The notes under the pieces are model-generated. The model made no database searches and was not told the DNA's origin. It was given only the letters and a program-made list of their open reading frames with translations. A stretch of DNA of 64,000 bases from Candidatus Microgenomatus sp. (lineage in GTDB: Bacteria; Patescibacteriota; Minisyncoccia; UBA6257; GWB1-50-10): the NCBI GenBank assembly GCA_020724805.1, contig DYGI01000001.1, forward strand, positions 175,157 to 239,156, given 5' to 3'. Position 1 is the stretch's first letter; every line of letters starts with the position of its first letter. The translations under genes were made by a program, and so were the position numbers. This document shows, piece after piece, positions 2,862-54,880 of this stretch.

Positions 2862-2936
2862 CCCTTCGATGAACTCAGGGTACTTAGCCTGGCCCGCCAG
2901 TGTTTACACTGAGCAAGCGTAAGCGAGTCGAAGTGT
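2862..2936. repeat. REP-like CTTCGA..CTCAG repeat pair
   Basis: cccttcgatgaactcaggg plus inverted unit cactgagc...gtcgaagtg; same family at 16819, 39816, 46026, 55641. Confidence 0.6.
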
Positions 2937-3115
2937 GCGGGATGGGAGAGATCGGCTTCGCCTCTCGCTTCGCTCGGGCCCCTCGGTCATGAGTCCTCGG
3001 GGTCGAATGACTAGCCACCGCCTCGCCGTGCCTGCGGCACATGCTCCGGCGTTCGATTCTCCACGCGAGCCAAGCAGTTGGCTCGCTCATCCGCAATATA
3101 GAATGTACTTATTAG
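2935..3115 (-). repeat. tRNA-Gly-linked structured element with duplicated tRNA 3' end
   Basis: gtgcgggatgggaga at 2935-2949 and 3115-3129; inverted T-arm copy gttcgattctcc at 3051-3062. Confidence 0.8.
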
Positions 3116-3186
3116 TGCGGGATGGGAGAATCGAACTCCCGCTCTCAGTTTGGAAAACTGACGTTCTGCCACTAAACTAATCCCGC
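3116..3186 (-). tRNA. tRNA-Gly(TCC), no encoded CCA
   Basis: Cloverleaf GCGGGAT..TTTCCAA loop..GTTCGATTC..ATCCCGCA. Confidence 0.95.
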
Positions 3187-3274
3187 TTCTTCAGGGCTAG
3201 AATACACAATAAATCACGCGAGGTACAGGGTTCTAATTTGCCGAGGATGACGCCCGTAGGATATGATGGGCTCG

Positions 3275-3886
3275 ATGAATTTTGCGAAGCTCAAAACACC
3301 AAAAATACTGATGCGTGCCGCACTCCTTCTTGTAGGGGTGGGGCTGCTCGCGTATTTGGTGGGTTCGAGTGTGGCGGCATCGCGCCTCCCCGAGGAATTT
3401 GTGCGCGCACGTCAAAATGCCGCACTTACAAGTCAGGACATCGTGGACCTCACCAAACTCACGAGCGAACGACTTGCCGAAGTGAATCTTTTGGAGTTGA
3501 AGGGCGACATCGTGCGGGCGCTTACGGTGGTTGCAGATGCGCGCACTTCAAACCAAGCCGCCTACAGTAAGGCGTTCGAGCTTACTCAGGATCTCCAAGA
3601 GCTTGCGAAGTCGCTCGGTGGAGTCCCTTCGATAGCCAAGCAGCGGGAGGGTTCCGAGGCAGTTGCCATTGAACTTTCGCTTGTGTCCGAGTTTATCATC
3701 TATACCCAGAAGGTGGATACATTTTTGGACGCACTTGAACGCGCCATTCGTTTCAATGTTGAATCGAATCGCGCTGCTGCGGCGGCCGCACTCGACGAGG
3801 TGAACGCGAAGGTGGTCTCTATCAACGCGCTGAATAATGCGTTTCGGAGAGCCATAGGAACCTTCGACGCTCCGGAAGGGGAATAG
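3275..3886 (+). CDS. Membrane-anchored helical hypothetical protein
   Basis: N-terminal TM helix then amphipathic helices; ATG 7 nt after TATGAT (alternative start 3263). Confidence 0.7.
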   Translation: MNFAKLKTPKILMRAALLLVGVGLLAYLVGSSVAASRLPEEFVRARQNAALTSQDIVDLTKLTSERLAEVNLLELKGDIVRALTVVADARTSNQAAYSKAFELTQDLQELAKSLGGVPSIAKQREGSEAVAIELSLVSEFIIYTQKVDTFLDALERAIRFNVESNRAAAAAALDEVNAKVVSINALNNAFRRAIGTFDAPEGE

Positions 3887-3968
3887 AAGGCGTTCCCGGC
3901 GATACGGCAAAAAAAGAGCCCGCGACCTACTTGGTCGGGGCTCACACGTCTTGTTGCGCGCACCTTTT

Positions 3969-4466
3969 TCACGGACGCCTCTTCCGGCCTTCCTTACATC
4001 CGGTGCACTTCGTGGCAACGGGAACCGCTTCGAGTCGCTCTTTGGGGATGAGCTCTCCGCACGATTCACACACGCCGTATGCTTTTTTCCCCATCCTTTG
4101 GAGTAGGACTCCTACCGTCACAGGTTGATGCTCCGCATGAAGCGATTCGACACACAGAATGGTCTTCCCAAGCAACTTCTCCGCATCGAGGAGGGAATTG
4201 CAAAAATTCGCTCCCTTGTCGGATATTATTCCAGCGACCTCCCTGTCCTGGGATTCTCCCCCTCCCTCCATATGGCTGGAGTATATATTCGATTCGAAGT
4301 GCTCGCGGAGCGACGCTCCGATCGGTTCGTAGGTATCCACGGTTTCCATTTTCCTTATATCCATGAGTTTGCGGAGTCCGTGGAGTGTGGAGAGACTGTG
4401 GAACATCGTGACGCCATTTCCGCCTGATGGGGGAATGCGTGTTGCAGCTAGAGCCGTTTTACCCAT
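3969..4466 (-). CDS. TraR/DksA C4-type zinc-finger protein
   Basis: YGVCESCGELIPKERLEAVPVATKCTGC; SD GGGAGG upstream. Confidence 0.8.
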   Translation of the reverse strand: MGKTALAATRIPPSGGNGVTMFHSLSTLHGLRKLMDIRKMETVDTYEPIGASLREHFESNIYSSHMEGGGESQDREVAGIISDKGANFCNSLLDAEKLLGKTILCVESLHAEHQPVTVGVLLQRMGKKAYGVCESCGELIPKERLEAVPVATKCTGCKEGRKRRP

Positions 4467-4531
4467 GGTACCTCCCTTGATGCTTGTGATGGATAGAATC
4501 GTGAATTACTAGGCCAATGTGTAGGTGGCCT

Positions 4532-4585
4532 TCATTCGCGCCGCACGACTCCCTCCACCGCGTACTCTCGTACCGGTTGGTGCAT
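4532..4585 (-). CDS. Putative 17-aa small ORF (MHQPVREYAVEGVVRRE)
   Basis: Strong SD-like AAGGAGGGAG before the ATG; upstream of the DksA-like gene. Confidence 0.25.
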   Translation of the reverse strand: MHQPVREYAVEGVVRRE

Positions 4586-4713
4586 AGGAATCTCCCTCCT
4601 TTCCAATGAGAATTTAGGAACCTCACTTACGATACTATGCAAGACAAATGTGTCAATTATGGTAGGCACATTCAGCCTGCTGGCTTCAGTACTTCCTTAC
4701 CTTCGTGCGTCAG

Positions 4714-4784
4714 TCGGGGCGCCGAGAGTCGAACTCGGTCTACCTGCTCCCAAAGCAGGCGTACTGCCGTCATACGCCGCCCCG
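4714..4784 (-). tRNA. tRNA-Pro(TGG), atypical core bases, no encoded CCA
   Basis: CGGGGCG acceptor, TTTGGGA loop, GTTCGACTC T-arm. Confidence 0.85.
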
Positions 4785-4831
4785 TACCCGTTTACCTTAC
4801 GCACTTTTTCATTTACCATCAACCTGAATCG

Positions 4832-4903
4832 CCCCCCGTAGCACAATGGATAGTGCAGGGCTCTTCTAAGGCCTTGATGTGGGTTCGATTCCTACCGGGG
4901 GGA
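4832..4903 (+). tRNA. tRNA-Arg(TCT), no encoded CCA
   Basis: Cloverleaf, CTTCTAA loop, GGTTCGATTCC T-arm. Confidence 0.93.
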
Positions 4904-4971
4904 CAAGCAAGGAAATATGCGAAAGGCATATTTTCGAGCGCGGGCGCCTGGCCGTAAGTACCGGGGACAAG
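4904..4971 (+). repeat. tRNA-Arg-linked short element with duplicated 3' end
   Basis: taccggggacaag (4959-4971) repeats the tRNA end taccggggggacaag; internal gaaatatgc..gcatattttc hairpin. Confidence 0.65.
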
Positions 4972-4987
4972 TAAGGGAATTAATCAC

Positions 4988-5725: not shown

Positions 5726-5748
5726 AACCAGCAATTTGTATTTAGAAC

Positions 5749-5774
5749 AAAAAACCGCCATACGGCGGTTTTTT
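5749..5774. terminator. Bidirectional intrinsic terminator
   Basis: aaaaaaccgcc-atac-ggcggtttttt. Confidence 0.8.
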
Positions 5775-5778
5775 GTCT

Positions 5779-5930
5779 TTGTGCCGCGGGAGGGAATCGC
5801 CTGCAAGTTCCTCTCTGCGGACTCGCAGGCCGCCCCTCGGTCGCATGCGCGACCTGCGGTCTTCGATTTCCGATCACGAGTCGCCCCGCGGCTCGCTTCC
5901 CGCGTGACTGCGTTCACTAGCGTTCTCTTG
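5779..5930 (-). repeat. tRNA-Phe-linked structured element with duplicated 3' end
   Basis: 21-bp direct repeat ttgtgccgcgggagggaatcg at 5779-5799 and 5928-5948; inverted copy ttcgatttcc..tcccgcg at 5862-5904. Confidence 0.8.
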
Positions 5931-6002
5931 TGCCGCGGGAGGGAATCGAACCCCCGACGCCAGCCTCTTCAGGGCTGCGCTCTACCACTGAGCTACCGCG
6001 GC
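5931..6002 (-). tRNA. tRNA-Phe(GAA), no encoded CCA
   Basis: GCCGCGGTAGCTCAG..CTGAAGA loop..GGTTCGATTCC. Confidence 0.95.
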
Positions 6003-25344: not shown

Positions 25345-26459
25345 GATTTTTTAGCCAGGATGGCATCGTATATTCTCTCGAGTTTTGTTATATAGGTATC
25401 GATCGTAAATTCATCATTTACCATCTTTTTTCCTCTTGCCGACATCTGTTCTCGAGATTTAGGGTTCCGGATCATGTCCTCAATACCCTGTTGTAGGCCC
25501 CGAACGGAGCAGGGAACAACTGCCGCGGCTCGAGAAAAGACGTCTCGACTCGATAACGTATCGGTAATGATGGTAGGGACTCCAAGATACATAGCTTCGA
25601 GCGTCACCAAGGAAAATGATTCCATCCGCGAGCTTACTACAAAGAGATCCATGAGCGATATCCAGACCGGAACGTCTTTTTGATGGCCCGCAAACATCAC
25701 TTTATTTGATATTTCTAATCGCCGTGCCCGCTCTTTCAGCTCGGTAGTTTTGGGCCCGTCGCCAATGAGCATCAGGAAGGAATTGGGTGTCTTTTCCAAT
25801 ATCCGCTTAAATGATTCCAAGAGCAAATCGTATCCTTTTTCCCACGACATTCTCCCCACCGACCCGAGAACGAAGGCGCGGGGAGGCACGGAGAGGCGGC
25901 GGCGGTATTCCTCCTTGTCGAACTCTTTCGGTAACAGGAGACGCTGGGGATCAACCGCATTATGGAGAACGAACAATTTTTTTCCAGTCGATTCGGCCAC
26001 GCGCTTCAAATGCTCCGCTTTTTCTTCAATGGTCGCTATGAAGGCACCGACGAGCCACCGGTTAATGAAAAATCTCACGATCTTTCTCGAAAGCGGTTCC
26101 GGCATATCCGGGTTATGAACGTGCGATATCACCGGAATGCCGAGTCCGAACACCCCCATGCTTCCGTAAAAATCGCTTGCGAGTTGATGGGTGTGCACGA
26201 TGTCGGGTTCACACTCTTTTATGAGGCGTCTTACCGCAGAGATGTTCCCGAAAACATTTTTTATATTTCCGAGTCCCAAACGGTAGTATTCGATGCCCCC
26301 ATCTTCCAGCTCCTGTCCCATGGTGCCGTTCCCCATAAGTGAGCACACCATAGGACGGTACCGCTCGCTTTTTGCAAGGGTTTTGGCGGTATCCACTACC
26401 ATCCGTTCCACGCCTCCGGGGTCGAGAGTCGCGGTTATGATAAGAACGTTTCGTTTCAT
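25341..26459 (-). CDS. Glycosyltransferase family 4
   Basis: GGVER, GR...KG, ESFSLVTLEAM; start set at MKRNVL. Confidence 0.9.
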   Translation of the reverse strand: MKRNVLIITATLDPGGVERMVVDTAKTLAKSERYRPMVCSLMGNGTMGQELEDGGIEYYRLGLGNIKNVFGNISAVRRLIKECEPDIVHTHQLASDFYGSMGVFGLGIPVISHVHNPDMPEPLSRKIVRFFINRWLVGAFIATIEEKAEHLKRVAESTGKKLFVLHNAVDPQRLLLPKEFDKEEYRRRLSVPPRAFVLGSVGRMSWEKGYDLLLESFKRILEKTPNSFLMLIGDGPKTTELKERARRLEISNKVMFAGHQKDVPVWISLMDLFVVSSRMESFSLVTLEAMYLGVPTIITDTLSSRDVFSRAAAVVPCSVRGLQQGIEDMIRNPKSREQMSARGKKMVNDEFTIDTYITKLERIYDAILAKKS

Positions 26460-26491
26460 ATCCTCGTGTTTAATGTGTATAGTGTAATCCA

Positions 26492-27706
26492 ATGGAAAGT
26501 AATACCAAAAGGTACCGTATGGCCTTTTTGACCGGCCAGCCCATCGTCGATCAAGCTCCGCTATTTAGAAAACTTGCCGAGCATCCTCGCGTGGATCTGA
26601 CCGTCTATTTTTGTTGGGATACCGGCGCGGGTGAAGTGTCGTTCGATAAGCAGTTTGGCGTGGCGATCCGATGGGGCACCCCGCTCCTTGGGGGATACCT
26701 ACACAAGTTTTTGAGGAATTTTTCCCTCAAACCTTCCGATTCTTTTTGGGGGCAGGTAAATTTTGGCATCATCGTTGAGCTTTTCAGGAACCGCTACGAC
26801 GCCATCGTCATTCACGGATGGAACTCGTTCACTTATTGGTTGGTGTTTCTCGTCGCCCCCGTGTTGGGAGTTGATATTTTTCTCCGAGGCGAGAACCCAT
26901 TCAATCAAGAGATTCTGAAGTCTTCATGGAACTTAAGGATCAAGAGAGTCGTATTGGGGTGGTTATTCCGACGGGTAAGTGCCTTCCTTTACCTCGGAGA
27001 AGAGAACAAGAAGTTCTATGAATATTATGGAGTCCCAGCGGAAAAGTTGTTCTTTACTCCCTACGCGGTCGAGAATGATCGGTTTTTTGAACAGGCGCAG
27101 CTGCTACGAAGCGATAGGGAAAAATTGAAGAAAGAAATGGGTTTGTCGCCGGAAAGCGTGACCATCCTTTTTATGGGGAAACTCATAGACAAAAAAAGGC
27201 CTTTTGACGCAGTGAAAGCGTTGGAAATTCTCGCCAGTTCCTTTCCAAACCTACGCCTTTTAATGGTAGGTGACGGCTCACTCCGGCCGGCGCTTGCACA
27301 ATACATCACCGAGAAGAATTTGCGACAAATCGAACTTGTTGGATTTAAAAATCAGACTGAAATTCCCAGGTATTATGCGGTCGCTGACATTTTCGTGTTG
27401 CCATCCGGACCCGGAGAAACGTGGGGGCTTGTAGTGAATGAGGCAATGAATTTCGGCCTTCCGATTGTGATCTCGGACATTGTGGGGTGTGGTCCGGATT
27501 TAGTCCGTGACGGAAAAAATGGTTATCGGTACCCAATCGGGAACATAGAGGCGCTTGCTAAATCTTTAGAGAAACTTATTGAGAGTAAGGAAAGGCGTGA
27601 AGCGTTTGGGATAGAGTCACTAGAAAAAGTACAAGAGTATTCTTATAAAAAAGACATTGAAGGAATTCTGGAAGCGCTAGATTTTAGTTATGACGGAAAG
27701 AGGTAA
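26492..27706 (+). CDS. Glycosyltransferase family 4
   Basis: GKLIDKK.P, ETWGLVVNEAM. Confidence 0.9.
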   Translation: MESNTKRYRMAFLTGQPIVDQAPLFRKLAEHPRVDLTVYFCWDTGAGEVSFDKQFGVAIRWGTPLLGGYLHKFLRNFSLKPSDSFWGQVNFGIIVELFRNRYDAIVIHGWNSFTYWLVFLVAPVLGVDIFLRGENPFNQEILKSSWNLRIKRVVLGWLFRRVSAFLYLGEENKKFYEYYGVPAEKLFFTPYAVENDRFFEQAQLLRSDREKLKKEMGLSPESVTILFMGKLIDKKRPFDAVKALEILASSFPNLRLLMVGDGSLRPALAQYITEKNLRQIELVGFKNQTEIPRYYAVADIFVLPSGPGETWGLVVNEAMNFGLPIVISDIVGCGPDLVRDGKNGYRYPIGNIEALAKSLEKLIESKERREAFGIESLEKVQEYSYKKDIEGILEALDFSYDGKR

Positions 27707-28775: not shown

Positions 28776-28778
28776 ATC

Positions 28779-29537: not shown

Positions 29538-29539
29538 AA

Positions 29540-30445
29540 ATGAAAAAAAAATTTATCGTAACAGGTGGGGCTGGATTTATAGGCTCCCATTTAGTAGATG
29601 CTATCATTGCGCGCGGTGACGAAGTGATTGTCATCGACAACCTTGCTACGGGGAAACGCGAGAACGTAAACCCAAATGCAAAATTTGTTCGAGTAGATAT
29701 TCGCAATTTTGAAGAAATCTTACCGCATTTTCATGGCGTAGATTTTGTGTTTCATGTTGCGGCGCTTGCGCGCGTTCAACCCTCTATAGAGGAGCCAAAA
29801 ACATTTCACGACGTTAACATTACTGGGACCCTTAATGTTCTTCTTGCTGCGAAAGAAGCTGGGGTGAAGAGGGTGATATATTCAGCTTCGTCGTCGGCGT
29901 ATGGAGATCAAAAAACCATGCCGCTCCGCGAAGATATGCCCGCAAATCCTTTGAGTCCCTACGGACTTCAAAAATATGTTGGGGAAATGTATTGCCGATT
30001 GTTTTCTAGAATATATGGCTTGCAAACTGTGAATCTGCGATATTTTAACGTTTACGGAGAACGTCAGCCGCTCGAGGGGGCATACTGTCTCGTGATGGGG
30101 ATTTTTATAAGACAGCGGCTTGCGGGCAAGCCGATGACTATTGTTGGCAATGGAGAGCAGAGACGCGATTATACCAATGTTGCGGACGTAGTAAGCGCCA
30201 ACCTGTTGGCTGTCGAGAGTAAAAACGTTGGTAATGGTGAGGTGATTAATATCGGGCGAGGTAGAAACTACACTGTTAATGAAGTGGCCGCAATGATTGG
30301 GGGGCCGACTACTAAACTTCCGCCACGTATAGAACCAATAGAGACTTTAGCAGACAACTCACTTGCGCGAAAACTTCTTAGGTGGGAGCCCCACATCAAC
30401 TTACCAGAGTGGATGGTGTCATACAAAAAAATAGTAGGACTGTAA
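29540..30445 (+). CDS. NAD-dependent epimerase/dehydratase (extended SDR)
   Basis: TGGAGFIGS, SSSAYG, YGLQK, RYFNVYG. Confidence 0.92.
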   Translation: MKKKFIVTGGAGFIGSHLVDAIIARGDEVIVIDNLATGKRENVNPNAKFVRVDIRNFEEILPHFHGVDFVFHVAALARVQPSIEEPKTFHDVNITGTLNVLLAAKEAGVKRVIYSASSSAYGDQKTMPLREDMPANPLSPYGLQKYVGEMYCRLFSRIYGLQTVNLRYFNVYGERQPLEGAYCLVMGIFIRQRLAGKPMTIVGNGEQRRDYTNVADVVSANLLAVESKNVGNGEVINIGRGRNYTVNEVAAMIGGPTTKLPPRIEPIETLADNSLARKLLRWEPHINLPEWMVSYKKIVGL

Positions 30446-30455
30446 CACTCCCACG

Positions 30456-31133
30456 GTGAATATAGAAAAATTCCGAAACAAGCAAGGGAAAATTTGGCTT
30501 AACGTTGCCTCCTCGGTTTATGCTTTGGCTGAGTTTGTTAATTTAGACAACAGCGTATTTCTTCAATTTTCAGACATACTTTATATACTGCGCCCCCTCA
30601 TCCCTGGAAAGTATCATGAATGGATTACAAAGTATAAAAATTTAAAAAAGAGCAAGCTTTTTTTAATACACGACTGCCGAAAACCACTTCCTTTCCCAAA
30701 CTCTTCCGTGGACCATGTATTGTGTTCGGATTTCCTCGAGCACGTCTTTCCAAAGGAGGCGGAAGAAATTGTCGGTGATTTTCACCGGGTATTAAAGGAT
30801 GGCGGTACATTGCACATCGTGGTGCCAAACCTCACGTGGATGGTTGAAGAATATCTAGAAAAGAAAAAGAGCAAGACGTCGAACGCCGCCGATTGGTTTA
30901 TCGCAGAAACCATATTAAGTCGAAAAACTCGAGGTTCCTTAAAATATAGAATTCTCGAATTTTTTGGCGCCTTCGGGTTGCAGCATTACTGGATGTACGA
31001 CGACGATTCCATGAAGATGTTGCTTGATAAATTTGGATTCAAAATAGTGGAGGAAAAAAATTTTCCAAGCAAAAACTATCGTGCTGGTATAGATTACAAA
31101 AGCAAGGCCGTCGAAGTCTTTGCTCAAAAGTAA
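30456..31133 (+). CDS. Methyltransferase type 11-like protein
   Basis: PLPFPNSSVD....FLEH, RVLK.GG...VPN. Confidence 0.75.
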   Translation: MNIEKFRNKQGKIWLNVASSVYALAEFVNLDNSVFLQFSDILYILRPLIPGKYHEWITKYKNLKKSKLFLIHDCRKPLPFPNSSVDHVLCSDFLEHVFPKEAEEIVGDFHRVLKDGGTLHIVVPNLTWMVEEYLEKKKSKTSNAADWFIAETILSRKTRGSLKYRILEFFGAFGLQHYWMYDDDSMKMLLDKFGFKIVEEKNFPSKNYRAGIDYKSKAVEVFAQK

Positions 31134-32246
31134 TCACCGGATCATTTTGAGGTATTTATTGGCCGCTGCTTCCACCGAGAAGAATTTTGCACGCTTGCAC
31201 AGCTCTTCGTGATTTCTTGGGCTGCTCATAGCTTCTTTAATAGCTTCTGCCAAGGCGTTTATGTTTTTGACTGGCACGAGTCTCCCAAATCTCCCGTTAT
31301 CCAGTGCTTCCGCGGGTCCCGTAGGGCAATTAGTTGCGACGACCGGCGTACCGCACGCCATGGCCTCTACTAGTACATTGCCCAACCCCTCGTATATAGC
31401 GGGATGCACAAATACTTTTGAGCGCGCCATGTAAGCGTATGGATTATCGACAAATCCAGGCATCGAAACATATTTCTCGACACCGAGATTTCCGGTCATT
31501 TCCTCAAGTTTTTCTCTTTCTTCTCCTTCGCCTAAAATGATGAGCCGGAGATTTTTTTCTCTTCTCAATATCGAGAATGCCTCTATAAGATTTGCGAATC
31601 CTTTTGATTCCGATAGGGAGCCCACACCAATTACCACGCCCTCGGATGATTCACTAAAAAACGGGTGCGAAACATCTTCACGACATTTTTCGTACACTTT
31701 TTCGTCGATGATTGGGTTGTAAACAACTTGCACGCGTTCCTGCGGTATTTTGGCGCATTTTGACAAGTCGTCCGCTATTCCCTTTGATGCTGCAGTAATG
31801 AAGTTTGCGCGCGGGTACAAGAGTCGTATCAATAAATGCATAACTCGCTTTCTTATCAATCCCCGTATGGAGAGCGAGATGAAGTTTTGTTCGCTTATTA
31901 TCAATTTCGTCTTTATTCCCGAAATAGCTCTTGCGACGATGGCGATTAAGTTACATTTGTTCATCGCAGAAATAATCACGTCGGGGCTTTCCCTACGTAG
32001 ATAAAGAGAGAATGGAAGGAGGCTTTGGGGCACACGGAACCTTTTTACTAATGGATTGAAACTAACGACCTCTATTTTCTGAGGAACCTGTTTCAAATAA
32101 GGGCCTTCTTTAACGATGAGAAAAAAACTCACTTGGTGCCCCTTACTATGGAGACTCATTGCTAAGTGAAGCATTGCTTTTTCCGCACCACCACCCCCCA
32201 ACGAAGTAAGGAAAATAACAATTCGTTTTTGTGTTGTAGACGCCAT
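31134..32246 (-). CDS. Glycosyltransferase family 4
   Basis: GGGAEK, NPY.YM, EGLGNVLVEAMACG. Confidence 0.9.
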   Translation of the reverse strand: MASTTQKRIVIFLTSLGGGGAEKAMLHLAMSLHSKGHQVSFFLIVKEGPYLKQVPQKIEVVSFNPLVKRFRVPQSLLPFSLYLRRESPDVIISAMNKCNLIAIVARAISGIKTKLIISEQNFISLSIRGLIRKRVMHLLIRLLYPRANFITAASKGIADDLSKCAKIPQERVQVVYNPIIDEKVYEKCREDVSHPFFSESSEGVVIGVGSLSESKGFANLIEAFSILRREKNLRLIILGEGEEREKLEEMTGNLGVEKYVSMPGFVDNPYAYMARSKVFVHPAIYEGLGNVLVEAMACGTPVVATNCPTGPAEALDNGRFGRLVPVKNINALAEAIKEAMSSPRNHEELCKRAKFFSVEAAANKYLKMIR

Positions 32247-32342
32247 AAATTTTGAGGTTAGTTGACTATATTGCAAATCTAATTTATTTTACATAAAGCA
32301 CAAGAATAAACCAACAGCCAATAACTTTGGAGGGCGAGTCTC

Positions 32343-33848
32343 ATGCAAGAACGAATTTGTCTCGTGATCCCGCCTTCCACATTTCTTCTGGATGAGCGGG
32401 TGTTTATGACCTTGGGTATTTTGAAGGTTGCTGCAGTGCTCGAAAAGACATGGAAGGTGGATGTGTTGGACCTCTCGGGTATTGAAAACTACGAAGAGGC
32501 GATGGCCGACTACCTTGCGCGGTTTGATACGACTGTATTCGGCTTTACTGCAACAACCCCACAAATGCCCGCAGTCAGTCGCCTTTCCCGCGTTATGAGG
32601 AGTCTTCGTCCTAGCTCAAAGCTAATTCTCGGCGGACCCCATGGAACGTTGGTAAACGCGGCGCACCGAAGAGAGAAGAAAGATGGCATTCGGGGGAGAG
32701 CAACAACAGCATTCGAAGGGCTTCTTGAGCTTTTCGATGTGGTGGTTGCAGGAGATGGAGAATATGCGGTTTTCGAAGCTCTCAAGTCCACTGCGCCGCG
32801 CCTCGTTGATGCTGATGATCCAGCATCAAGCTTGTTCCTGACGGACACAGCTTTGGACGAAACGCCTTGGCCAGCTCGCCATCTCGTGGATGTGGGAAGT
32901 TATCATTACTCTATTGAAGGGGAACGCGCATTGAGTCTTATCGCTCAACTTGGATGCCCCTTTAACTGTGGTTTTTGCGGAGGAAGAAACTCACCTTTTC
33001 TTCGAAGAATCCGTACGAGGACCACTGAGAACATCGTCGCAGAAGTCGAATACCTCTACAAGCAATATGGGGTAAAAGGCTTCATGTTTTATGACGATGA
33101 GTTGAACGTTTCCCGCTCCATGGTGGACACGATGAATCAACTCTCCAATCTCCAGAGTAAGTTGGGAGTCGAATTTCGCTTGCGTGGGTTCATTAAGTCA
33201 CAACTATTTACTGATGAACAAGCAAGCGCGATGTATCGTGCGGGGTTCCGGTGGATATTGGTAGGTTTTGAATCCGGTTCCCCGAGAATTTTGCGGAATA
33301 TCGACAAGCGAGCGACGCGCGAGGAGAACACGAGGTGCTTGGAGATCGCGAAGCGCCACGGTCTCAAGGTGAAAGCGCTTATGTCGATTGGACATCCTGG
33401 AGAATCGGAAGATACCATTCTCGACACGCGTAATTGGCTACTCGAGACGTCACCTGACGATTTCGATGTAACGATTATAACTGTCTATCCAGGAACTCCG
33501 TACTACGACAAAGCCGTTCTTCACCCGGATCGCCCTGATACGTGGGTCTACACATTCGAAGGAGATCACTTGTATAGCCGCGAGGTTGACTACCGGACAG
33601 TGGCTGAATACTACAAAGGAGATCCTGACGGAGGTTATCAGGCGTATGTTCACACCGACTTTCTTACCTCGGAACGTATCGTTGAGCTACGCGACTTCGT
33701 TGAGAGAGATGTTCGGAAAAAACTGAACATACCCTTCAATCCAAGTGCGGCGGCTCGACGGTACGAACATTCGATGGGTCAAGCAGGAACCATGCCATCG
33801 AATATTCTACGCTCGTCCGCTTTCAAGATTTCCAAGAGCCTGGTCTAA
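32343..33848 (+). CDS. B12-binding domain radical SAM protein
   Basis: N-terminal cobalamin-binding region (ILGGPH, GDGE), CPFNCGFC, GFESG. Confidence 0.88.
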   Translation: MQERICLVIPPSTFLLDERVFMTLGILKVAAVLEKTWKVDVLDLSGIENYEEAMADYLARFDTTVFGFTATTPQMPAVSRLSRVMRSLRPSSKLILGGPHGTLVNAAHRREKKDGIRGRATTAFEGLLELFDVVVAGDGEYAVFEALKSTAPRLVDADDPASSLFLTDTALDETPWPARHLVDVGSYHYSIEGERALSLIAQLGCPFNCGFCGGRNSPFLRRIRTRTTENIVAEVEYLYKQYGVKGFMFYDDELNVSRSMVDTMNQLSNLQSKLGVEFRLRGFIKSQLFTDEQASAMYRAGFRWILVGFESGSPRILRNIDKRATREENTRCLEIAKRHGLKVKALMSIGHPGESEDTILDTRNWLLETSPDDFDVTIITVYPGTPYYDKAVLHPDRPDTWVYTFEGDHLYSREVDYRTVAEYYKGDPDGGYQAYVHTDFLTSERIVELRDFVERDVRKKLNIPFNPSAAARRYEHSMGQAGTMPSNILRSSAFKISKSLV

Positions 33849-33922
33849 GTACTGACCAGGCTCCTTTTTATGTTATTTGTGTAAAAAGTGCGTTTTTATT
33901 TCATGCGTGATACTTTAGAATT

Positions 33923-35125
33923 ATGAAAATTCTTCATATTGTTTCCACATATATCCCCGCCTATCGCCGTGGGGGACCCATTGCAAGCGTTCACAATATG
34001 AATAAGTGGCTCGCAAAGAAAGGCGTTGATGTTACGGTGTACACTACCGATATCGATATTCCAAAGGGGAGCGTAAGGCTTGGAGAAGAAGTGAATGTGG
34101 ACGGAGTGAAGGTATGGTACTTCCCGCTAACGTGGAAGACGTGGCAGTACGCGTACGGTATGCACCGCGCGCTTGCCGAAAGCGCAGGAAATTTTGACAT
34201 CATGCACATCACGTCCACCTTTCTCGCCGCTTCCACGCTTGGCGCGTATTATGCGAAGAAATTCAAGGTTCCATACCTCATTTCGCCGCGCGGCAATTTA
34301 ATGAAGGAACCCCTCTCAAAGGGCGTTCTCAAGCGCTTTAAAAAATCGCTTTATCTTCTTCTTGTAGAGAAAAGAAACCTTATGGGGGCAGCGGCTATAG
34401 ATTTCACTGTAGAAAGCGAGAAGCGGGAATATCTTGAACAAAAACTTCCCCCAGTGAGAACACTGGTTCTTCCGAACGGGCTCGAAGTGGAGCACGTAGG
34501 AAGGAGAAACGATAATCCACAAGAAATCAAAAAAGTTTTTTGCGAGCAATATGGTTTGCCGGAATCAGCACGCATCGTTTTGTTTCTCGGAAGGATAACG
34601 TGGATAAAAGGGTTCGATACGCTCATACCCGCATTTGCAAATATCGCACGCAAGGCACGCGACGCATTTCTAGTAATCGTGGGGCCAGATGAAGGAGGAT
34701 ATGAGAAAACGGTGAAAAAACTAGTGGCCGAGAATGCATTACACGAGAAGGCCATTTTCACGGGAATGCTTACTGGGAAACAAAAAGAGAACGCGCTTTA
34801 TGCGGCCGATGTTTTTGTGCTTCCTTCATACTCGGAGAGTTTTGGTATGTCCGCGATAGAGGCGATGTCTCTCGGAGTGCCCGTGGTGGTAACTACCCGT
34901 GTAGGCATTGCGCCGGATATCGGAAAAGTGGGGGCCGGGCTGGTAGTGGAAAAAGACGATCGGCAGCTAGCGGATGCAGTACTTTCGATCCTTGGAGATC
35001 CATCGCTCGCACAGCGTATGGGAACGAAGGGGAGTGAATTGGTTTCGCGAGAATTCGACGCTTCACGGTTAGCAGAAAAATGGATCGAAACCTATAATGA
35101 ACTCGCTTATCATGAACAACGGTAA
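33923..35125 (+). CDS. Glycosyltransferase family 4
   Basis: GGP, LFLGRI..KG, ESFGMSAIEAM. Confidence 0.9.
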   Translation: MKILHIVSTYIPAYRRGGPIASVHNMNKWLAKKGVDVTVYTTDIDIPKGSVRLGEEVNVDGVKVWYFPLTWKTWQYAYGMHRALAESAGNFDIMHITSTFLAASTLGAYYAKKFKVPYLISPRGNLMKEPLSKGVLKRFKKSLYLLLVEKRNLMGAAAIDFTVESEKREYLEQKLPPVRTLVLPNGLEVEHVGRRNDNPQEIKKVFCEQYGLPESARIVLFLGRITWIKGFDTLIPAFANIARKARDAFLVIVGPDEGGYEKTVKKLVAENALHEKAIFTGMLTGKQKENALYAADVFVLPSYSESFGMSAIEAMSLGVPVVVTTRVGIAPDIGKVGAGLVVEKDDRQLADAVLSILGDPSLAQRMGTKGSELVSREFDASRLAEKWIETYNELAYHEQR

Positions 35126-35918
35126 ATTGGACGTTATAATCCTTACGAGAAACGAGGAGAAAAATCTCCCGTACGCGCTTGAGAGCGTGAAGTCACTCAA
35201 AGTGAAGGTGTGGGTGGTGGACTCGGGTTCAACCGATGGAACGGAACGAATCGCCAAGGCGGCGGGCGCCGAGGTCGTCTCACACACCGAATATGTGAAC
35301 CAGGCACAGCAGTTCAATTGGGCGCTCGATAACCTCCCTTTGGAAGGGGAGTGGGTATTGCGATTAGATGCTGATGAATGGCTCACACCCGAACTCGCTG
35401 AGGAAATAAAGGACACAGTTGATAGCGACCCTCCGGTTAACGGTTATTACCTGCCAAGGCGCGTGTATTTCATGGGCCGATGGATGCGCCATGGCGGATA
35501 TTACCCCACGTGGATATTACGACTTTTCCGCCGCGGGAAGGCGCGCTCCGACAATAGACCTATGGATGAGCATATTGCGCTTTCAGAAGGAGTTGCCGAA
35601 CGGCTTACCTGTGACTTTGCGGACGAGAACCGGAAAGGACTTTCGGAGTGGGTGCGCAAACACAACGATTATGCTTCGCGCGAGGCCGTCGCCGTTCGGG
35701 AAGGGAATGACGGAGAGAGCGGGCAGAAGAAGACTATATACTACCGAACCCCGCCATTTTTGCGGGCACTCATCTACTTTTGTTATCGCTACTTTTTACG
35801 ACTCGGGTTTTTGGACGGAATTCCAGGATTAGCGTTCCACTTCCTTCAGGGTTTTTGGTACCGGTTCTTGATAGACGCAAAACTTTACGAGATGAAAAGA
35901 GAATCGCGCACCCATTAA
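35112..35918 (+). CDS. Glycosyltransferase family 2
   Basis: NEE.NL, VDSGSTD.T, LDADE. Confidence 0.9.
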   Translation: MNNGKLDVIILTRNEEKNLPYALESVKSLKVKVWVVDSGSTDGTERIAKAAGAEVVSHTEYVNQAQQFNWALDNLPLEGEWVLRLDADEWLTPELAEEIKDTVDSDPPVNGYYLPRRVYFMGRWMRHGGYYPTWILRLFRRGKARSDNRPMDEHIALSEGVAERLTCDFADENRKGLSEWVRKHNDYASREAVAVREGNDGESGQKKTIYYRTPPFLRALIYFCYRYFLRLGFLDGIPGLAFHFLQGFWYRFLIDAKLYEMKRESRTH

Positions 35919-35924
35919 TTAATC

Positions 35925-36893
35925 ATGAACAACTCTGTCAGCGCCATTGTCACGGTTTATAACAAACAAAATACCATTGCCAAAACACTGGAGTCTTTAT
36001 TGTCCCAACCTTCGAAGTTTAAAGAAATAATTGTTGTGGACGATGGGGGTACTGATGGCTCCGCCGAAATCGTAAAGAAATTCGCGGAGAAGCATAAAAA
36101 TATAAGATATGCTTTTCAGAAAAATCAAGGCGTGGCTTTATCGTTGAATGCGGGGTTAAGAATGGTAAATACCGATCTTGTCGCGGTGCTTGATGGAGAC
36201 GTAGCGCTTCCTGAAAATTGGCTCCCGACATTAATGTCGTATTTTGGGAACAAAGAAATTGCGGCGGTTTCCGGTTTAACAAAAACAATGAACCCAAAAA
36301 ATCTTTGGGCCGCGTTGGCTGGTTATAACGTGGAATATAGGCAGTCAAAGATAGAAGGTGAATTTGTTGACCACCTGAGTACCACCAACGTTATCTACCG
36401 GAAAGCGGTTTTGGACAAGATCGGCTTGTTTGACCCGGAGTTCAGGTATGGCCAGGATAATGAAATTAGTTATAGGATCCTGGCGGCCGGCTATAAATTG
36501 GTTCTTTCAAAGAAGACTTTCTGCCTCCATTTTTGGCCAGAAAGCTTTATGGGTTTTATGAAGCAGCGAATGCATGGCGCACTGGGTAGGGTAATGCTGA
36601 TTAAAAAGCATCCAAAAAGATTGACGGGGGATAAGGTTTCCAGTTTGCGTTATTTCTTGGAATTGCCGCTTGGATCGGCTTTTCTTTTGTCCCTCATTGC
36701 GCCCTTATTCTATCCCGGCTTTTTGATTGTGGCGGGGTTCATTATGGTTCTGATCTACCTTTTCCAATTGAGCGAGATTCACTTTTTTATCAAAAACAAA
36801 AAAGCGCTCATCGGGTTTTTTATGCCCGTTTTTGTTGCCTTACGGACGGTAGCGTGGCTCGGCGGAATTATTAAATTTTACTTGAAAGGCTAG
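35925..36893 (+). CDS. Glycosyltransferase family 2 with C-terminal TM helices
   Basis: YN, VDDGGTDGS, LDGD. Confidence 0.88.
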   Translation: MNNSVSAIVTVYNKQNTIAKTLESLLSQPSKFKEIIVVDDGGTDGSAEIVKKFAEKHKNIRYAFQKNQGVALSLNAGLRMVNTDLVAVLDGDVALPENWLPTLMSYFGNKEIAAVSGLTKTMNPKNLWAALAGYNVEYRQSKIEGEFVDHLSTTNVIYRKAVLDKIGLFDPEFRYGQDNEISYRILAAGYKLVLSKKTFCLHFWPESFMGFMKQRMHGALGRVMLIKKHPKRLTGDKVSSLRYFLELPLGSAFLLSLIAPLFYPGFLIVAGFIMVLIYLFQLSEIHFFIKNKKALIGFFMPVFVALRTVAWLGGIIKFYLKG

Positions 36894-38527
36894 GAATTGA
36901 TTTCCCCTTCGAAATACTTTAAGAATTCTTTTTTAGCCCTGTCATACCTGTCACCCCATCCCTTTGCGCTCTGCAGTTTTTCTTCAAGGTCAAGCATGAT
37001 TTTTGTGGAGGTGATGACGGAATCGATCGAGTCGCCCGGTTCATTGTTAGCAATTTTACGCGCGATAGTTTTGTACATATCCTTGTAGCTTGTCGGCTTT
37101 AAAACGCTCGTTTTTCTTATGATCCGGTTGGCGTCTTCGGAGATGTAGCGGGTGGCATCCAAAATCCTTACAATCTTTCCCGTCACTTTCAGCTCAACAA
37201 CATCTTTGGGGCCAACGCGCGGACTGCCTTTTTCGCTAAAGGTTGAGGTTAACGTGGCGCCGTTCTCCAGTTCTATCCACGTGACAATGGTATTATCGCT
37301 TAAGAGTTTAAGGTCAAAATTCTTCGGTTTGCTGAAGTTATTGAGATACAAAAAGTGGTCGATCTGATGGCACGCATTCGCATAAAAGGTGCTACGGGAA
37401 ACTGGCCAGTTGTACCAGAAGAATTCCGGTTGTTTTAACTCATAAACAATGGAGTTGTAGAAAATTGGTTCGCCGTATCGTACCCCTAGATCTTTCAATG
37501 CCCATTTGTTAAAGGGGCCGTAACGTTTTTGAAAACCGATAAAGAGGCGAGGACCTGATTTTTTGAGTGCCGCTTCTAATTCATTTAGTTCCTCGTAATC
37601 ATTTACTACCGGCTTCTCCACCAAGGCGTACGCGCCTTGATTAAGGGCATGAATAGCGAGGAGCGCGTGGAAATGATTATAGGTTGCTATGAAGTAAGCA
37701 TCTGCTTTCTCATCTTTTCGCGGGATAGGATAAGAATCCCATTTTTGAATTCTTTGCTCCAAAAATATTTCCGTAGGGTCAATCTCATGGACCGTTTGTA
37801 TATCCACGAAGGGGCGCGTGTACGGAATTATGTTGATTTTGGCGTAATTGCCGTAGCCGAACAAAATCCCGGTTTTTTTGCCGCCCTCTGCTTTAGGAAG
37901 GGAGCCCTTTATCTCCGAGATAGGCTTGGAGTTTGTGGCATCAATTATCTCCGCCGTAGCCCAGTCAGTATTTTTGAGTTCTTTAGCTACACCATCCTCA
38001 ATTTTTTCTTCGGTCTCGGGGGAAATCGCCACGCCGGAATAAACACTCCAGGCGCGAAGTTCTTTCCACCAACCGTTCTCCGTCTTTTGGCCCGATAGCG
38101 GCACGTGTAGAATTTTGTCAGCACGGATCTGGGGTAGATCAGAGTGATCAACTTTAAAAATAAGTTTTTCGGGCAAGACGATTCTTTCTGCGAGTGCCGG
38201 GTGCCAAGGTGCCAAAAAGCCGACCAGATCTCCGACGGGAAAGCCGTTGTCTTCGGCAGTCTCAATAATCTCTCCAAAACCGCAAGAAATATACTTTTCG
38301 TTCCGATAATCCTCGCGGAGTCGTGACCAGGTCTTGTAGAACGTTCCTTCAAATCCCATTACGGGAAAGTAGTTCCAGAGCAAACGCAAACTTTTTGGCC
38401 GTATATGATATACGTTCTCCAGCTTTTCTAGATTCTTGAAACCTAAAACTTTTATCCGGTACTCCTTTCGGTTTTTGGGGTAATCCACAAAACCATCCCG
38501 CCACTTTTTATTGGTTAAAATTCTCAT
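36890..38527 (-). CDS. Gfo/Idh/MocA-like oxidoreductase with N-terminal extension
   Basis: GYGNYA, VEKP, GFQKRY.P, CH.ID. Confidence 0.65.
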   Translation of the reverse strand: MRILTNKKWRDGFVDYPKNRKEYRIKVLGFKNLEKLENVYHIRPKSLRLLWNYFPVMGFEGTFYKTWSRLREDYRNEKYISCGFGEIIETAEDNGFPVGDLVGFLAPWHPALAERIVLPEKLIFKVDHSDLPQIRADKILHVPLSGQKTENGWWKELRAWSVYSGVAISPETEEKIEDGVAKELKNTDWATAEIIDATNSKPISEIKGSLPKAEGGKKTGILFGYGNYAKINIIPYTRPFVDIQTVHEIDPTEIFLEQRIQKWDSYPIPRKDEKADAYFIATYNHFHALLAIHALNQGAYALVEKPVVNDYEELNELEAALKKSGPRLFIGFQKRYGPFNKWALKDLGVRYGEPIFYNSIVYELKQPEFFWYNWPVSRSTFYANACHQIDHFLYLNNFSKPKNFDLKLLSDNTIVTWIELENGATLTSTFSEKGSPRVGPKDVVELKVTGKIVRILDATRYISEDANRIIRKTSVLKPTSYKDMYKTIARKIANNEPGDSIDSVITSTKIMLDLEEKLQSAKGWGDRYDRAKKEFLKYFEGEINS

Positions 38528-38596
38528 AAATTTCGTTTCAATATATCAAACTCGTCGCAATTTAGCAAAATCGAAGTGTTGATTATATCCCTTGGT

Positions 38597-40516
38597 CTAC
38601 GCGAACCATCGGTCGTACCACAAAGAAAGCGTGACAAGGTTCCAGAGACGGAATGCGGAAGAAGCGTCGCCTGCGTGGTGTGATTGTGCCATTGTTTCTA
38701 CGTAGCCATAGTCGAGCATTTTCTGGTTTCGAAGTTTTGATGAAAGGATTATCGAAAGAAGCGCTTTCGAGGTTTTTGTGCCTGGCGTGAACCAATGTGC
38801 CATTGGGGTCCAAAACCCCTGCTTTTTGCGCCAAATAATTTCGCTCGGGATAATTCCCTCAACAGCTTTTTTGAGAATGTATTTAGATTCACCCCCCCTG
38901 ATTTTAAGTGAAGTGGGGATATCGAATGCAAGCTCCACGAGGCGTGTATCCAAAAACGGTACGCGGCCTTCCACTGAATGCGCCATGGTCATGCGGTCGG
39001 CGCGGGCGAGAAGCAGTTCAGGAAGGCGATGTTTCAGTTCGGTGTAGGTGAGGCGCGCGAGGAATTCTTGGCGGGAAGGTGCTTTTTCCATTTCGCGATA
39101 CCACCCGTCGATCACTTCGTAGCTCGAACGGTTATTAAGAAGTTTGGCGAAGTCAGGCGTTATTAGTTTTTGTTTTTGGAAATCGCTCCAGGCGATTGCA
39201 AGTCCCCAGAACGGTTCTTGATGTTCCGCGAGCCGCCGGAGATACTCCCTTTGGAAATCGAAGCGGGGATGATGGAGTAGGACGCTCGCGGAAAATACTC
39301 CCTTACGTACCAGTGCAGGCAGCTTTTCGAGCCATCGCCACCACCGTTCGTAGAGCCGGACCGCCTGAACATACTGGCCATACCCAGTAAAGAGTTCGTC
39401 TGCACCTTCGCCTATCTGCACCACAATAACTCCATTCTCCCTCGCGAGCTTTGAGAGCCAGTAGAGCGGAATTGAGACGTGATCCCCGTTCGGATCGTCG
39501 AAGTGGTAAGCATGGTGAGGAAGGTATTCTTCCAGGTGCTTTTCGTCGATAAGAATTTCGTGCGTGCGCGCGCCGAGCCGTTTCGCCACTTCTCGGGAGT
39601 AACGGAACTCACTTAAATTTTGGAATCCTTTAGAAGCGACGGAGAACGTTTCCACGGGCCGCCCCAACACTTCGCTCATGATTGAAGCGTTCGTGGAAGA
39701 ATCAATCCCGCCCGAGAGAAAGCATCCGAAAGGGACGTCGGAAACCATCTGGCGGCGGATGGAGTCGCGGAGAAGCGAACGAACTTCGTCTATGTATTCA
39801 CCTTCTGTTTTGGGAGTTTGTCCTGAGTTTGTTGAAGGATTCCAATACTCGGTTTCATTGATAGTTCCTTCGGGAGAAACGATAAGCATATGTCCCGCAG
39901 TGAGCTTTTTAATGTCGCGAAAAAGAGTGTGCGGTGCCGGAGAAGCCGAGAAGGTGAGAAAATGCGATACTCCTTCTTCATTCAATTCACGTTTTATATC
40001 TGGGTGCGCGAGAATGGCTTTGATCTCGGAACCAAAATAAAGACTGCCGCCCTCCACGCAATAGTAGAACGGTTTGATGCCCATATGATCCCGTGCGGCA
40101 AGAAGTGTTTTTCTTTTTTCATCCCAAATAACGAATGCAAACATGCCGTTCAGGCGCTTCACGAATGCAGGGCCCCACGCGAGATAAGCATTCAATATCA
40201 CCTCTGTGTCGCCTTTCGAGCGGAAAGAGTAACCAAGAGTCTCGAGTTCTTTTTTTAACTCCTGAAAGTTATAGACCTCCCCGTTGTAGGTTATCCATGC
40301 ACGTTCCTTCGCATCGGTCATCGGCATGTGTCCGGCGGGTGAAAGGTCTATGATTTTCAACCGACGTGTACCGAGGCCCACCTTCCGGTCGGGCGAAAGA
40401 TATACTCCGGCGTCATCGGGGCCGCGGTGTACGAGTGTGTCACGCATGGCGATGAGTGTGCGCTCATCCACGCTTTTTGAATTTTTAAAGTGATATATCC
40501 CTGTAATGCCGCACAT
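38597..40516 (-). CDS. asnB: Asparagine synthase (glutamine-hydrolysing) family amidotransferase
   Basis: MCGI N-terminus, HRGPD, LSGGIDSS, GEGADE, EGRVPFLD. Confidence 0.92.
   Translation of the reverse strand: MCGITGIYHFKNSKSVDERTLIAMRDTLVHRGPDDAGVYLSPDRKVGLGTRRLKIIDLSPAGHMPMTDAKERAWITYNGEVYNFQELKKELETLGYSFRSKGDTEVILNAYLAWGPAFVKRLNGMFAFVIWDEKRKTLLAARDHMGIKPFYYCVEGGSLYFGSEIKAILAHPDIKRELNEEGVSHFLTFSASPAPHTLFRDIKKLTAGHMLIVSPEGTINETEYWNPSTNSGQTPKTEGEYIDEVRSLLRDSIRRQMVSDVPFGCFLSGGIDSSTNASIMSEVLGRPVETFSVASKGFQNLSEFRYSREVAKRLGARTHEILIDEKHLEEYLPHHAYHFDDPNGDHVSIPLYWLSKLARENGVIVVQIGEGADELFTGYGQYVQAVRLYERWWRWLEKLPALVRKGVFSASVLLHHPRFDFQREYLRRLAEHQEPFWGLAIAWSDFQKQKLITPDFAKLLNNRSSYEVIDGWYREMEKAPSRQEFLARLTYTELKHRLPELLLARADRMTMAHSVEGRVPFLDTRLVELAFDIPTSLKIRGGESKYILKKAVEGIIPSEIIWRKKQGFWTPMAHWFTPGTKTSKALLSIILSSKLRNQKMLDYGYVETMAQSHHAGDASSAFRLWNLVTLSLWYDRWFA
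39816..39840 (-). repeat. REP-like repeat in frame within asnB (NPSTNSGQ)
   Basis: atccttcaacaaactcaggacaaac on the minus strand. Confidence 0.55.
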
Positions 40517-52893: not shown

Positions 52894-52915
52894 TACGCTT
52901 TTCATACGATTGCTT

Positions 52916-54172: not shown

Positions 54173-54173
54173 T

Positions 54174-54198
54174 AAAAACCGCCCCCAGGGCGGTTTTT
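54174..54198. terminator. Bidirectional intrinsic terminator
   Basis: aaaaaccgccc-cca-gggcggttttt. Confidence 0.8.
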
Positions 54199-54221
54199 GT
54201 GTTTGCACTGGATATTTCGAA

Positions 54222-54370
54222 GTGTGCCTCCTGAAGGGGATCTCCTTCGCCTCTCGGCGCGCCGGCGCGCACTCGGGCTAGGCACCGCCTCGCGTGCCGT
54301 TCTTCTGAACGGCACAGTCTCCGGCGTTCGATCCCTGCCGCGCATCGAGCAGTCGATGCGCTAGTTGGTG
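54222..54370 (-). repeat. tRNA-Lys-linked structured element with duplicated 3' end
   Basis: gtgtgcctcctgaaggggatc (54222-54242) vs gtgtgcctcctgcagggatc (54368-54387); inverted T-arm copy at 54326-54338. Confidence 0.8.
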
Positions 54371-54443
54371 TGCCTCCTGCAGGGATCGAACCTGCGACCG
54401 TCTCCTTAAAAGGGAGCTGCTCTACCAACTGAGCTAAGGAGGC
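54371..54443 (-). tRNA. tRNA-Lys(TTT), no encoded CCA
   Basis: GCCTCCTTAGCTCAGTTGGTAGAGC..CTTTTAA loop..GGTTCGATCCC. Confidence 0.95.
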
Positions 54444-54540
54444 AGTTGGTTTTTTCTATAGTACCTGCGGATTTCGGTTTTCGCAATCGTTGGCACGTGC
54501 CCCGCGAACTTATACGAGTGGAATAAATTTCTCTCCGAGT

Positions 54541-54568
54541 AGCGTGGTGTAATTAATTACACCACGCT
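54541..54568. repeat. Perfect 28-bp palindrome
   Basis: agcgtggtgtaatt|aattacaccacgct. Confidence 0.8.
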
Positions 54569-54653
54569 GTCATATGCAGTGGGCACATGAGAGGAGAGTT
54601 GAAAATGAAGGAGCGGTATAGCACAATAGGAACGCACTTTTAACAGTGTGTAT

Positions 54654-54725
54654 TCCCCGGTAGCTCAATGGTAGAGCGCCTCGCTGTTAACGAGTGGGTT
54701 GTAGGTTCGAATCCTACCCGGGGAG
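54654..54725 (+). tRNA. tRNA-Asn(GTT), no encoded CCA
   Basis: TCCCCGGTAGCTCAATGGTAGAGC..CTGTTAA loop..GGTTCGAATCC. Confidence 0.95.
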
Positions 54726-54880
54726 CAAGCGAGTGAAATGTAAAGCCGCCGTAAGGCGGTTTTATATTTCCGAGCGCAGCCCCCGGGCATCTGAGCGAAG
54801 CGAGGATACCAGGGGAGCACGGGCGCTTTTGTTATTGAAACGAGGCGAACCCGGGCAAGCGTAGCGCACCCAGCGGAGCA
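54726..54880 (+). repeat. tRNA-Asn-linked element with two degenerate copies of the tRNA 3' end
   Basis: taccaggggagca (54807-54819) and acccagcggagca (54868-54880) vs tRNA tacccggggagca. Confidence 0.65.

Follow-up and report, generated by a model that had tools for sequence, protein, structure and literature searches.

A family of tRNA-linked units with an inverted copy of the host tRNA tail in a Patescibacteria genome, and its resemblance to the tRNA-linked repeats of Escherichia coli

In architecture, the closest described counterparts of the elements reported here are the tRNA-linked repeats (TLRs) of Escherichia coli, namely the tyrT/tyrV repeats, RtT and RrA/B/F (Egan and Landy 1978 and Rudd 1999, as summarized in PMC8144298). 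According to the text of the latter source, the defining feature of TLRs is an 18-19 bp copy of the 3′-end of the upstream gene, and they have no known function; they are transcribed and processed, and small RNAs with a tRNA-like end derive from RrA/B/F. The same text mentions neither an internal antisense segment nor mobility. In a preprint, the mobilome coverage of tyrT-rttR was raised under stress, and the passages concerned ascribe the signals at RNA genes to RNA/DNA hybrids, not to circles (bioRxiv 10.1101/2024.07.17.603846). We analyzed a stretch of 64,000 nt (the window) from Candidatus Microgenomatus sp., a member of the Patescibacteria (assembly GCA_020724805.1, contig DYGI01000001.1, positions 175,157 to 239,156), in which several tRNA genes are followed by structured units. 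Similarly to the TLRs, which lie behind a tRNA or 5S gene, these units contain no gene, end in a copy of the 3′-end of the upstream gene and can occur in tandem; moreover, they carry inside an inverted copy of the tail of their own tRNA. The architecture was already known from the TLRs; units in Patescibacteria, an antisense arm in TLRs, the triplication geometry and mobility were not found described in a literature search, the original TLR papers and the figures and supplements of PMC8144298, which may mention them, lying outside that search. TLRs have been without an origin or a function since 1978, and the Patescibacteria-like units add to the question a fast turnover, an empty site and an inverted arm templated by the host.

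Each unit is an inverted triplication of the tRNA tail around a scaffold: the tail of the gene, from about nt 57, is followed by a central hairpin, an inverted copy of the tail, a shared scaffold and a further direct copy of the tail (the distal copy). When tail and spacer are folded together, they form a single long fold-back arm, comprising the tail, the central hairpin flanked by A/T, the antisense acceptor and the antisense T-arm; the antisense acceptor is often decayed and at times split off by an extra hairpin. A preliminary description, made from the letters of the window alone, had proposed that the element changes to match the tRNA it follows, and this is borne out by a pooled set of 74 distinct units from the source genome, a sample of its class, genome contigs and metagenomes, from which we excluded units of Gln(TTG), those whose distal copy has more than 3-4 mismatches and those in which no antisense could be located. 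Of 518 variable sites in this set, 421 agree between the antisense and its own host, versus 264.5 +/- 9.1 with permuted hosts (maximum 307 in 10,000 permutations). The antisense also follows A57 in 7/7 units, as well as the rare C55 loop in G321 and G328, and in three loci (L079, L094, L071) most of the tail has an almost perfect antisense counterpart. At those sites among positions 57-64 where the distal copy departs from the tRNA, the antisense agrees with the tRNA 91 times and with the distal copy twice, sites that are not independent because of register shifts.

The distal copy, in turn, decays. Among the 73 units kept for the distal-copy and loop analyses, its exact match begins at nt 56-57 in 34 and at nt 59-61 in 35, and it differs from the tRNA at positions 61-72 in 19; at all 35 differing sites (68 units), the gene's own tail is a better partner of the 5′ strand than the distal copy. 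These findings weaken an earlier suggestion that the distal copy closes a maintained tRNA-like domain. The scaffold, which measures 79-121 nt in 80% of the units, is constrained as a single strand in the tRNA sense: the class A scaffold (28 sequences) shows double-sided changes at 10 of 15 consensus pairs, four of these ten lying in the antisense:distal helix, and it favours the tRNA-sense strand (G.T 28 versus A.C 3). Triloops of the cGNAg type number 65 on this strand and 5 on the other, against 17.6 in shuffles; GNA triloops form stable DNA mini-hairpins. The wobble bias is weak in the fold-back arm (G.T 56 versus A.C 37) and absent from the antisense:T-arm helix, with 9 G.T-type and 9 A.C-type pairs.

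This strand preference is also what a host RNA function would lead one to expect, in which a co-transcribed trailer would fold on the tRNA tail as a processing switch, or would release a small RNA with a tRNA-like end, as in E. coli RrA/B/F. The predicted fold sequestering the tail lies below the forced cloverleaf by 9.5 (Gly), 5.0 (Phe) and 14.3 (Lys) kcal/mol, G.U pairs and GNRA loops are biased towards the sense strand, and the TLRs are transcribed and processed, as stated in the text of PMC8144298. However, which tRNAs are occupied varies even among members of one family or genus, distal copies decay, the antisense:T-arm helix has no wobble bias, and the central hairpin upstream of the antisense is often terminator-like; we thus regard such a function as quite unlikely.

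The tRNA-linked units are a real family and occur genome-wide. The source genome (G000) has 613 kb in 4 contigs and is 98.9% complete by markers, the sampled genomes of the same class ranging from 0.4 to 1.9 Mb. An insert of 125-225 nt ending in a copy of the own tRNA tail is found at 17 of its 46 tRNA genes, and the antisense T-arm is clear in 15 of these inserts. When a unit is defined by the tRNA's own T-stem plus acceptor 13-mer, with at most 1 mismatch and within 300 nt, 18/46 tRNAs score, 17 of them behind a structured insert; in the control, the 13-mer of another tRNA is present in only 8/46 rows, for one tRNA each and mostly from the neighbouring tRNA gene, indicating that the own-tail copies are not due to chance. 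The scaffolds of this genome fall into at least three classes (A, B and C); profiles A and B, built from other genomes, and profile C, which includes two G000 units, match G000 only behind tRNAs (4/4, 8/8 and 3/3, respectively). Related scaffolds lie behind a tRNA or transfer-messenger RNA (tmRNA) gene in 13 titled genome records, 11 from Patescibacteria groups and 2 unclassified; a Saccharibacteria genome has a class B unit behind its tmRNA gene (L083). Rfam at the gathering threshold recovers tRNAs only, with neither RtT nor another family over the scaffolds, and at E<=10 it gives just sub-threshold matches, on tRNAs, terminators or loosely spanning, with no ribozyme over the scaffolds. The proposal that this is no described family thus stands as far as Rfam is concerned, while the architecture is that of the E. 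coli TLRs as outlined in PMC8144298.

In the window itself, tRNA calls place the seven tRNA genes where they had been reported, and the five named ones (Gly, Arg, Phe, Lys and Asn) all lack an encoded CCA. Full units, with distal copy and antisense T-arm, follow Gly, Phe and Lys, as originally noted (Table 1). The units at Asn and Arg are short and decayed and have no antisense T-loop; they fail the genome-wide 13-mer test (3 and 4 mismatches, respectively), so the five elements first counted among the seven tRNAs correspond to three full and two degenerate ones. The 24-nt hairpin of the Gly unit recurs in the Glu(TTC) and Trp units of G000. The Phe antisense T-arm matches at 9/13 positions in register, and the hairpin behind its distal copy is, we infer, likely the original tRNA-Phe terminator. 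The Arg distal copy has a 2-nt deletion and extends about 11 nt beyond the tRNA end, while that of Asn (54807-54819) has 13 nt with 1 mismatch, in a unit lacking a class A, B or C scaffold. The genes around the tRNAs are ordinary (sigma-70, ZIP, FtsZ, RsgA). Logan contigs of runs X1, X3 and X5, which are a possible source of the window DNA, hence not independent, and are not long reads, cross the Gly and Phe units with 0 differences, so these two are not an obvious assembly artefact. Joints in X5 that skip the Gly unit consist of divergent contigs with unknown sequence between them and were not used.

Table 1. Host tRNA genes, parts of the units and adjoining hairpins, in window coordinates.
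Feature	Position	Strand	Remarks
tRNA-Gly(TCC)	3115..3186	-	Host gene
Gly unit, weak central hairpin and imperfect antisense of acceptor 3′ strand	3088..3114	-	Anti-acceptor at 3088-3096
Gly unit, 24-nt hairpin	3064..3087	-	Between anti-acceptor and anti-T-arm
Gly unit, antisense T-loop/T-stem	3051..3062	-	Within a 15-nt arm, 93% complementary
Gly unit, class A scaffold	2953..3050	-	Two variable hairpins; predicted tandem G.A internal loop
Gly unit, distal tail copy	2935..2952	-	15 nt exact, 2935-2949
Inverted pair of short palindromic repeats	2863..2933	-	Directly behind Gly distal copy
tRNA-Arg(TCT)	4832..4904	+	Host gene
Arg degenerate unit, hairpin and decayed distal copy	4905..4980	+	No antisense T-loop
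tRNA-Phe(GAA)	5930..6002	-	Host gene
Phe unit, spacer hairpins, anti-acceptor and antisense T-arm	5862..5929	-	Anti-acceptor 5884-5891; antisense T-arm 5862-5871
Phe unit, scaffold	5800..5861	-	Short, divergent
Phe unit, distal copy	5779..5799	-	21 nt exact
Terminator-like hairpin	5747..5776	.	Behind Phe distal copy
tRNA-Lys(TTT)	54370..54443	-	Host gene
Lys unit, hairpin and antisense T-arm	54326..54369	-	Antisense T-arm 54326-54338, 13/13 perfect
Lys unit, class A scaffold	54241..54325	-	
Lys unit, distal copy	54222..54238	-	17 nt at 94%, 1 mismatch in T-stem strand
Terminator-like hairpin	54174..54198	.	Behind Lys distal copy
tRNA-Asn(GTT)	54654..54726	+	Host gene
Asn unit, hairpin, imperfect anti-acceptor, short GAA-loop hairpin and distal copy	54727..54819	+	Hairpin 54739-54766; anti-acceptor 54776-54787
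Possible second Asn unit	54853..54880	+	More decayed; read from sequence

Comparison with E. coli K-12 revealed both shared and divergent traits. Of 76 different tRNA contexts, 14 show a distal copy; in one of these rows the repeat is due to a neighbouring gene. The TLRs at Tyr, Lys, Arg, Pro and Ser each hold an antisense T-stem segment that tracks the host, together with hairpins with a GAA loop; at rrB (rrnB), reading by eye puts the T1 terminator where the central hairpin would be, and a stretch antisense to the 5S tail, with wobble pairs, comes after it (loci L367, L404, L405, L422, L423, L432 and L375 for these antisense and rrnB observations). As TLRs do, the Patescibacteria units lie directly downstream of their gene, all profile matches in G000 being behind tRNAs, and copy its 3′-end, over 13-21 nt from nt 56-61 as compared with 18-19 bp in TLRs. 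By contrast, the E. coli antisense usually ends at nt 59, short of the T-loop; the bodies share no detectable homology, the three scaffold profiles giving 0 nhmmer matches at E<=0.05 among 37 E. coli loci; and, whereas the text of PMC8144298 describes rrA/B/F as conserved in the Enterobacteriales, the Patescibacteria units turn over fast. The window units are thus counterparts of the TLRs in architecture rather than established members by descent, and the comparison suggests that the two kinds of unit were left behind by a single process of DNA copying, which is likely selfish. The antisense segment of the TLRs, so far overlooked, makes the question testable in a laboratory strain.

The turnover of the units fits a mobile cassette and not a conserved tRNA trailer. 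When tRNAs are matched by anticodon, only 1 of the 14 occupied in G000 is also occupied in G257, from the same family, and there by a different scaffold class; three tRNAs without a unit in G000 carry one in G257, and within one genus 3/11 tRNA-Arg(CCG) loci hold a unit. What follows the distal copy in G328 aligns with the DNA directly behind the empty tRNA-Arg of G056, indicating that the distal copy is the displaced original end of the gene; the central hairpins of G321 and G328 resemble the terminator of that empty site. More generally, the 60 nt after the gene and the 60 nt after the distal copy have a mean likeness score of 23.9, versus 15.4 +/- 0.6, with 11/71 units above the 99th percentile of the null, and in 5/73 units the exact repeat extends 38-65 nt beyond the tRNA end. 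The units occur in tandem at Trp and Val(TAC) of G000, as well as at L056, L308 and L336; the first copy is the better one in 7 and the second in 1 of the 8 rows counted, a polarity that is suggestive only, because some second units are chance hits. Because the search patterns were too loose, chance also accounts for about 100 of the 120 loci on genome contigs and for the majority of the 87 metagenome matches without a tRNA link. Overall, differing presence at matching tRNA loci of relatives, the empty site, identical scaffolds at different tRNAs, arrays and covarying helices lend support to the initial idea of a tRNA-targeting, non-autonomous element. At Trp (G000:C4:104677-105150) the two tandem units are of different scaffold class, and the antisense of the second matches the true T-loop at 13/13 positions while its own distal copy has decayed. 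In L249, L255, L290, L338 and L360 the proximal tail of the scaffold unit is reduced to a short remnant, a later insertion having apparently parted the unit from its tRNA or tmRNA; a short motif just upstream is common to L255/L290, L338 and L360.

The scaffold is identical over 137/137 positions at Arg(GCG) and Gly(CCC) of G000. Modules made of the scaffold and the antisense T-loop block might spread by recombination or gene conversion through the near-universal T-loop, with quasi-palindrome template switching then correcting the arms to the host and no dedicated enzyme involved. Besides the identical scaffold at two tRNAs, such swapping would explain the hairpin that Gly, Glu and Trp have in common outside their host-specific antisense and the imperfect fit to the host of the antisense of the second Val(TAC) unit and of the Glu unit, and it would accord with the lack of matches to reverse transcriptase, serine recombinase, IS110 and Y1 transposase in G000. 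On its own it leaves the first insertion at an empty site, the new direct tail copy and the boundary near the T-loop unexplained, and it is an unlikely complete explanation; it is compatible with insertion and can run on top of it, and swapping with later correction probably also acts.

Duplicated tails behind tRNA genes recall integrative elements, which use tRNA 3′-ends as attL/attR, also at a T-loop sublocation. As in those elements, a duplicated tail with its start in the T-loop restores the tRNA, and the single tyrosine recombinase of G000 is found directly beyond the Leu(TAG) unit (G000:C3:106009-106518, ending close behind it), so the units might be decayed att scars of integrase-borne islands. 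However, they contain no integrase between the copies and no cargo, only inserts of 125-225 nt without a gene (about 150-200 nt typically), and such scars predict neither the host-tracking inverted tail, nor the tight size (79-121 nt), nor the identical scaffolds; none of 107 matches in viral contigs is located in a unit, and the recombinase, judging from its C-terminus, is probably a housekeeping Xer. The att-scar reading is thus disfavoured and very improbable.

The preferred reading, which we hold to be about evenly balanced between right and wrong, is that the units are gene-less cassettes, polymorphic among relatives, that were likely inserted at the tRNA T-loop by way of single-stranded DNA and whose host-matching arms the target gene itself likely templated. 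Synthesis would proceed through the tRNA tail, fold back at the terminator hairpin and run in reverse over the tail as far as the T-loop; the scaffold would then link the two T-loop ends, through formation of a dumbbell circle or through another template switch, and re-entry at the T-loop would restore an intact tRNA, leaving the old tail downstream to decay. Later, scaffold modules would likely swap between loci via their T-loop-matching ends, and the E. coli TLRs may be older products of the same fold-back process. Template switching yields a direct-inverted-direct arrangement of this kind, to which the units add a foreign scaffold at one of the junctions, close to the T-loop; the inverted triplications of origin-dependent inverted-repeat amplification have the same geometry, bounded by an inverted repeat, and differ, in the account consulted, in being of yeast, at the kilobase scale and origin-dependent, without a foreign shared scaffold or tRNA targeting (PMC11790251). 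If this reading is true, the target would itself supply the guide by which a mobile element is aimed at it, and the process would explain a noticeable part of what little non-coding DNA these minimal genomes have.

Any enzyme would act in trans. G000, at its 98.9% completeness, has no match to RVT_1, serine recombinase (PF07508), the IS110 DEDD recombinase (PF01548), which bridge-RNA elements require, or Y1_Tnp; what it does contain is a single tyrosine recombinase and two small GIY-YIG genes, neither of the latter two at a tRNA unit. The lack of RVT_1, together with that of Rfam ribozymes over the scaffolds, bears also on the idea that the trailer is a small circular or rod-like RNA, similar to a T-loop intron or a retrozyme, reverse-transcribed into tRNA genes: an alternative predicted fold puts the whole insert in the T-loop and the scaffold is structured on the transcribed strand, but an intron requires an intact distal exon, while the proximal tail is the better partner at 35/35 sites, and we consider this route very unlikely. 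REP/RAYT elements are small hairpin repeats acting as single-stranded DNA; they differ from the units in that their Y1 transposase has no match in G000. Ssn GIY-YIG proteins cut single-stranded DNA at hairpins and are linked to SRM/NTS repeats, which are likewise small hairpin repeats acting as single-stranded DNA; as far as the text of PMC11893778 goes, SRMs do not copy host sequence and tRNA has 0 occurrences. A cognate nuclease or transposase gene flanked by the repeats, as in these two systems, is not found in G000.

A small Ssn-like GIY-YIG single-strand nuclease would be the leading, although weak, candidate. Small GIY-YIG genes of the class cluster at tRNAs, 14 of 31 loci having one within 1.5 kb and 15 of 29 within 350 nt, and some sit inside partial tRNA duplications; the link is weak, one of co-location only, and has counter-examples. 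Still more tentative than insertion itself, and doubtful at present, is a prokaryote-wide version in which self-programming mini-elements, whose single-stranded scaffold captures the tRNA tail by fold-back into a dumbbell circle, would re-integrate at the T-loop driven in trans by small GIY-YIG nucleases, the E. coli TLRs and the rrnB T1-T2 region being fossils.

Several findings weigh against insertion of a cassette through single-stranded DNA. GNRA tetraloops are enriched as well (29 versus 7.2), so the loops do not separate single-stranded DNA from RNA. The patterns used for searching already prescribed some of the antisense T-loop (positions 54-57 for class A hits), the units are related and their counts are thus not independent, and the antisense T-arm of the second Val(TAC) unit fits its host poorly. 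The repeat extends only 0-4 nt beyond the tRNA end in 63/73 units, several of the long extensions are re-duplicated arms of older units and not fresh terminator copies, and the 137/137 identity could be due to gene conversion. No cargo-bearing unit is found among 10 class A and 18 class B genome matches and 34 tRNA-linked metagenome matches, all 34 of the latter lie within 177 nt of the tRNA, and no circular or excised form is seen among the contigs, the only material covered. As for the nuclease, the antisense T-arm is absent from loci in which a tRNA is followed by a GIY-YIG gene (0/8 in one set, 0/5 in another), G021 has young units and yet no GIY-YIG match at E<=1e-12, and G257 has more small GIY-YIG genes than G000 and fewer units.

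Some loci with small GIY-YIG genes have arrangements of their own. In L382 (838-1290) and L395 (1457-1840) the gene is enclosed by a tRNA and a copy of its 3′-end, and in L395 it is flanked by an inverted palindromic pair; by eye, the palindrome pair behind the Gly distal copy of the window resembles the latter, which lies behind tRNA-Ser, and encloses no gene. In L387, L388, L392, L396, L399, L402 and L403 the gene lies between a broken 5′ copy of the tRNA and the intact tRNA, the broken copy often being split by a GC-rich palindrome. Elsewhere in G000, an open reading frame with an HNH-like motif, as read by eye, lies directly behind tRNA-Thr(TGT) (G000:C4:103460-103880), and ARAGORN in intron mode calls a 656-nt intron in tRNA-Ser(CGA) (G000:C3:127083-127830). 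Positions 26000-40000 of the window form a low-GC block (41-50% versus about 55%) with many open reading frames of 225-640 aa, possibly an acquired gene cluster, and a perfect 28-nt palindrome lies at 54541-54568, between the divergent tRNA-Lys and tRNA-Asn genes.

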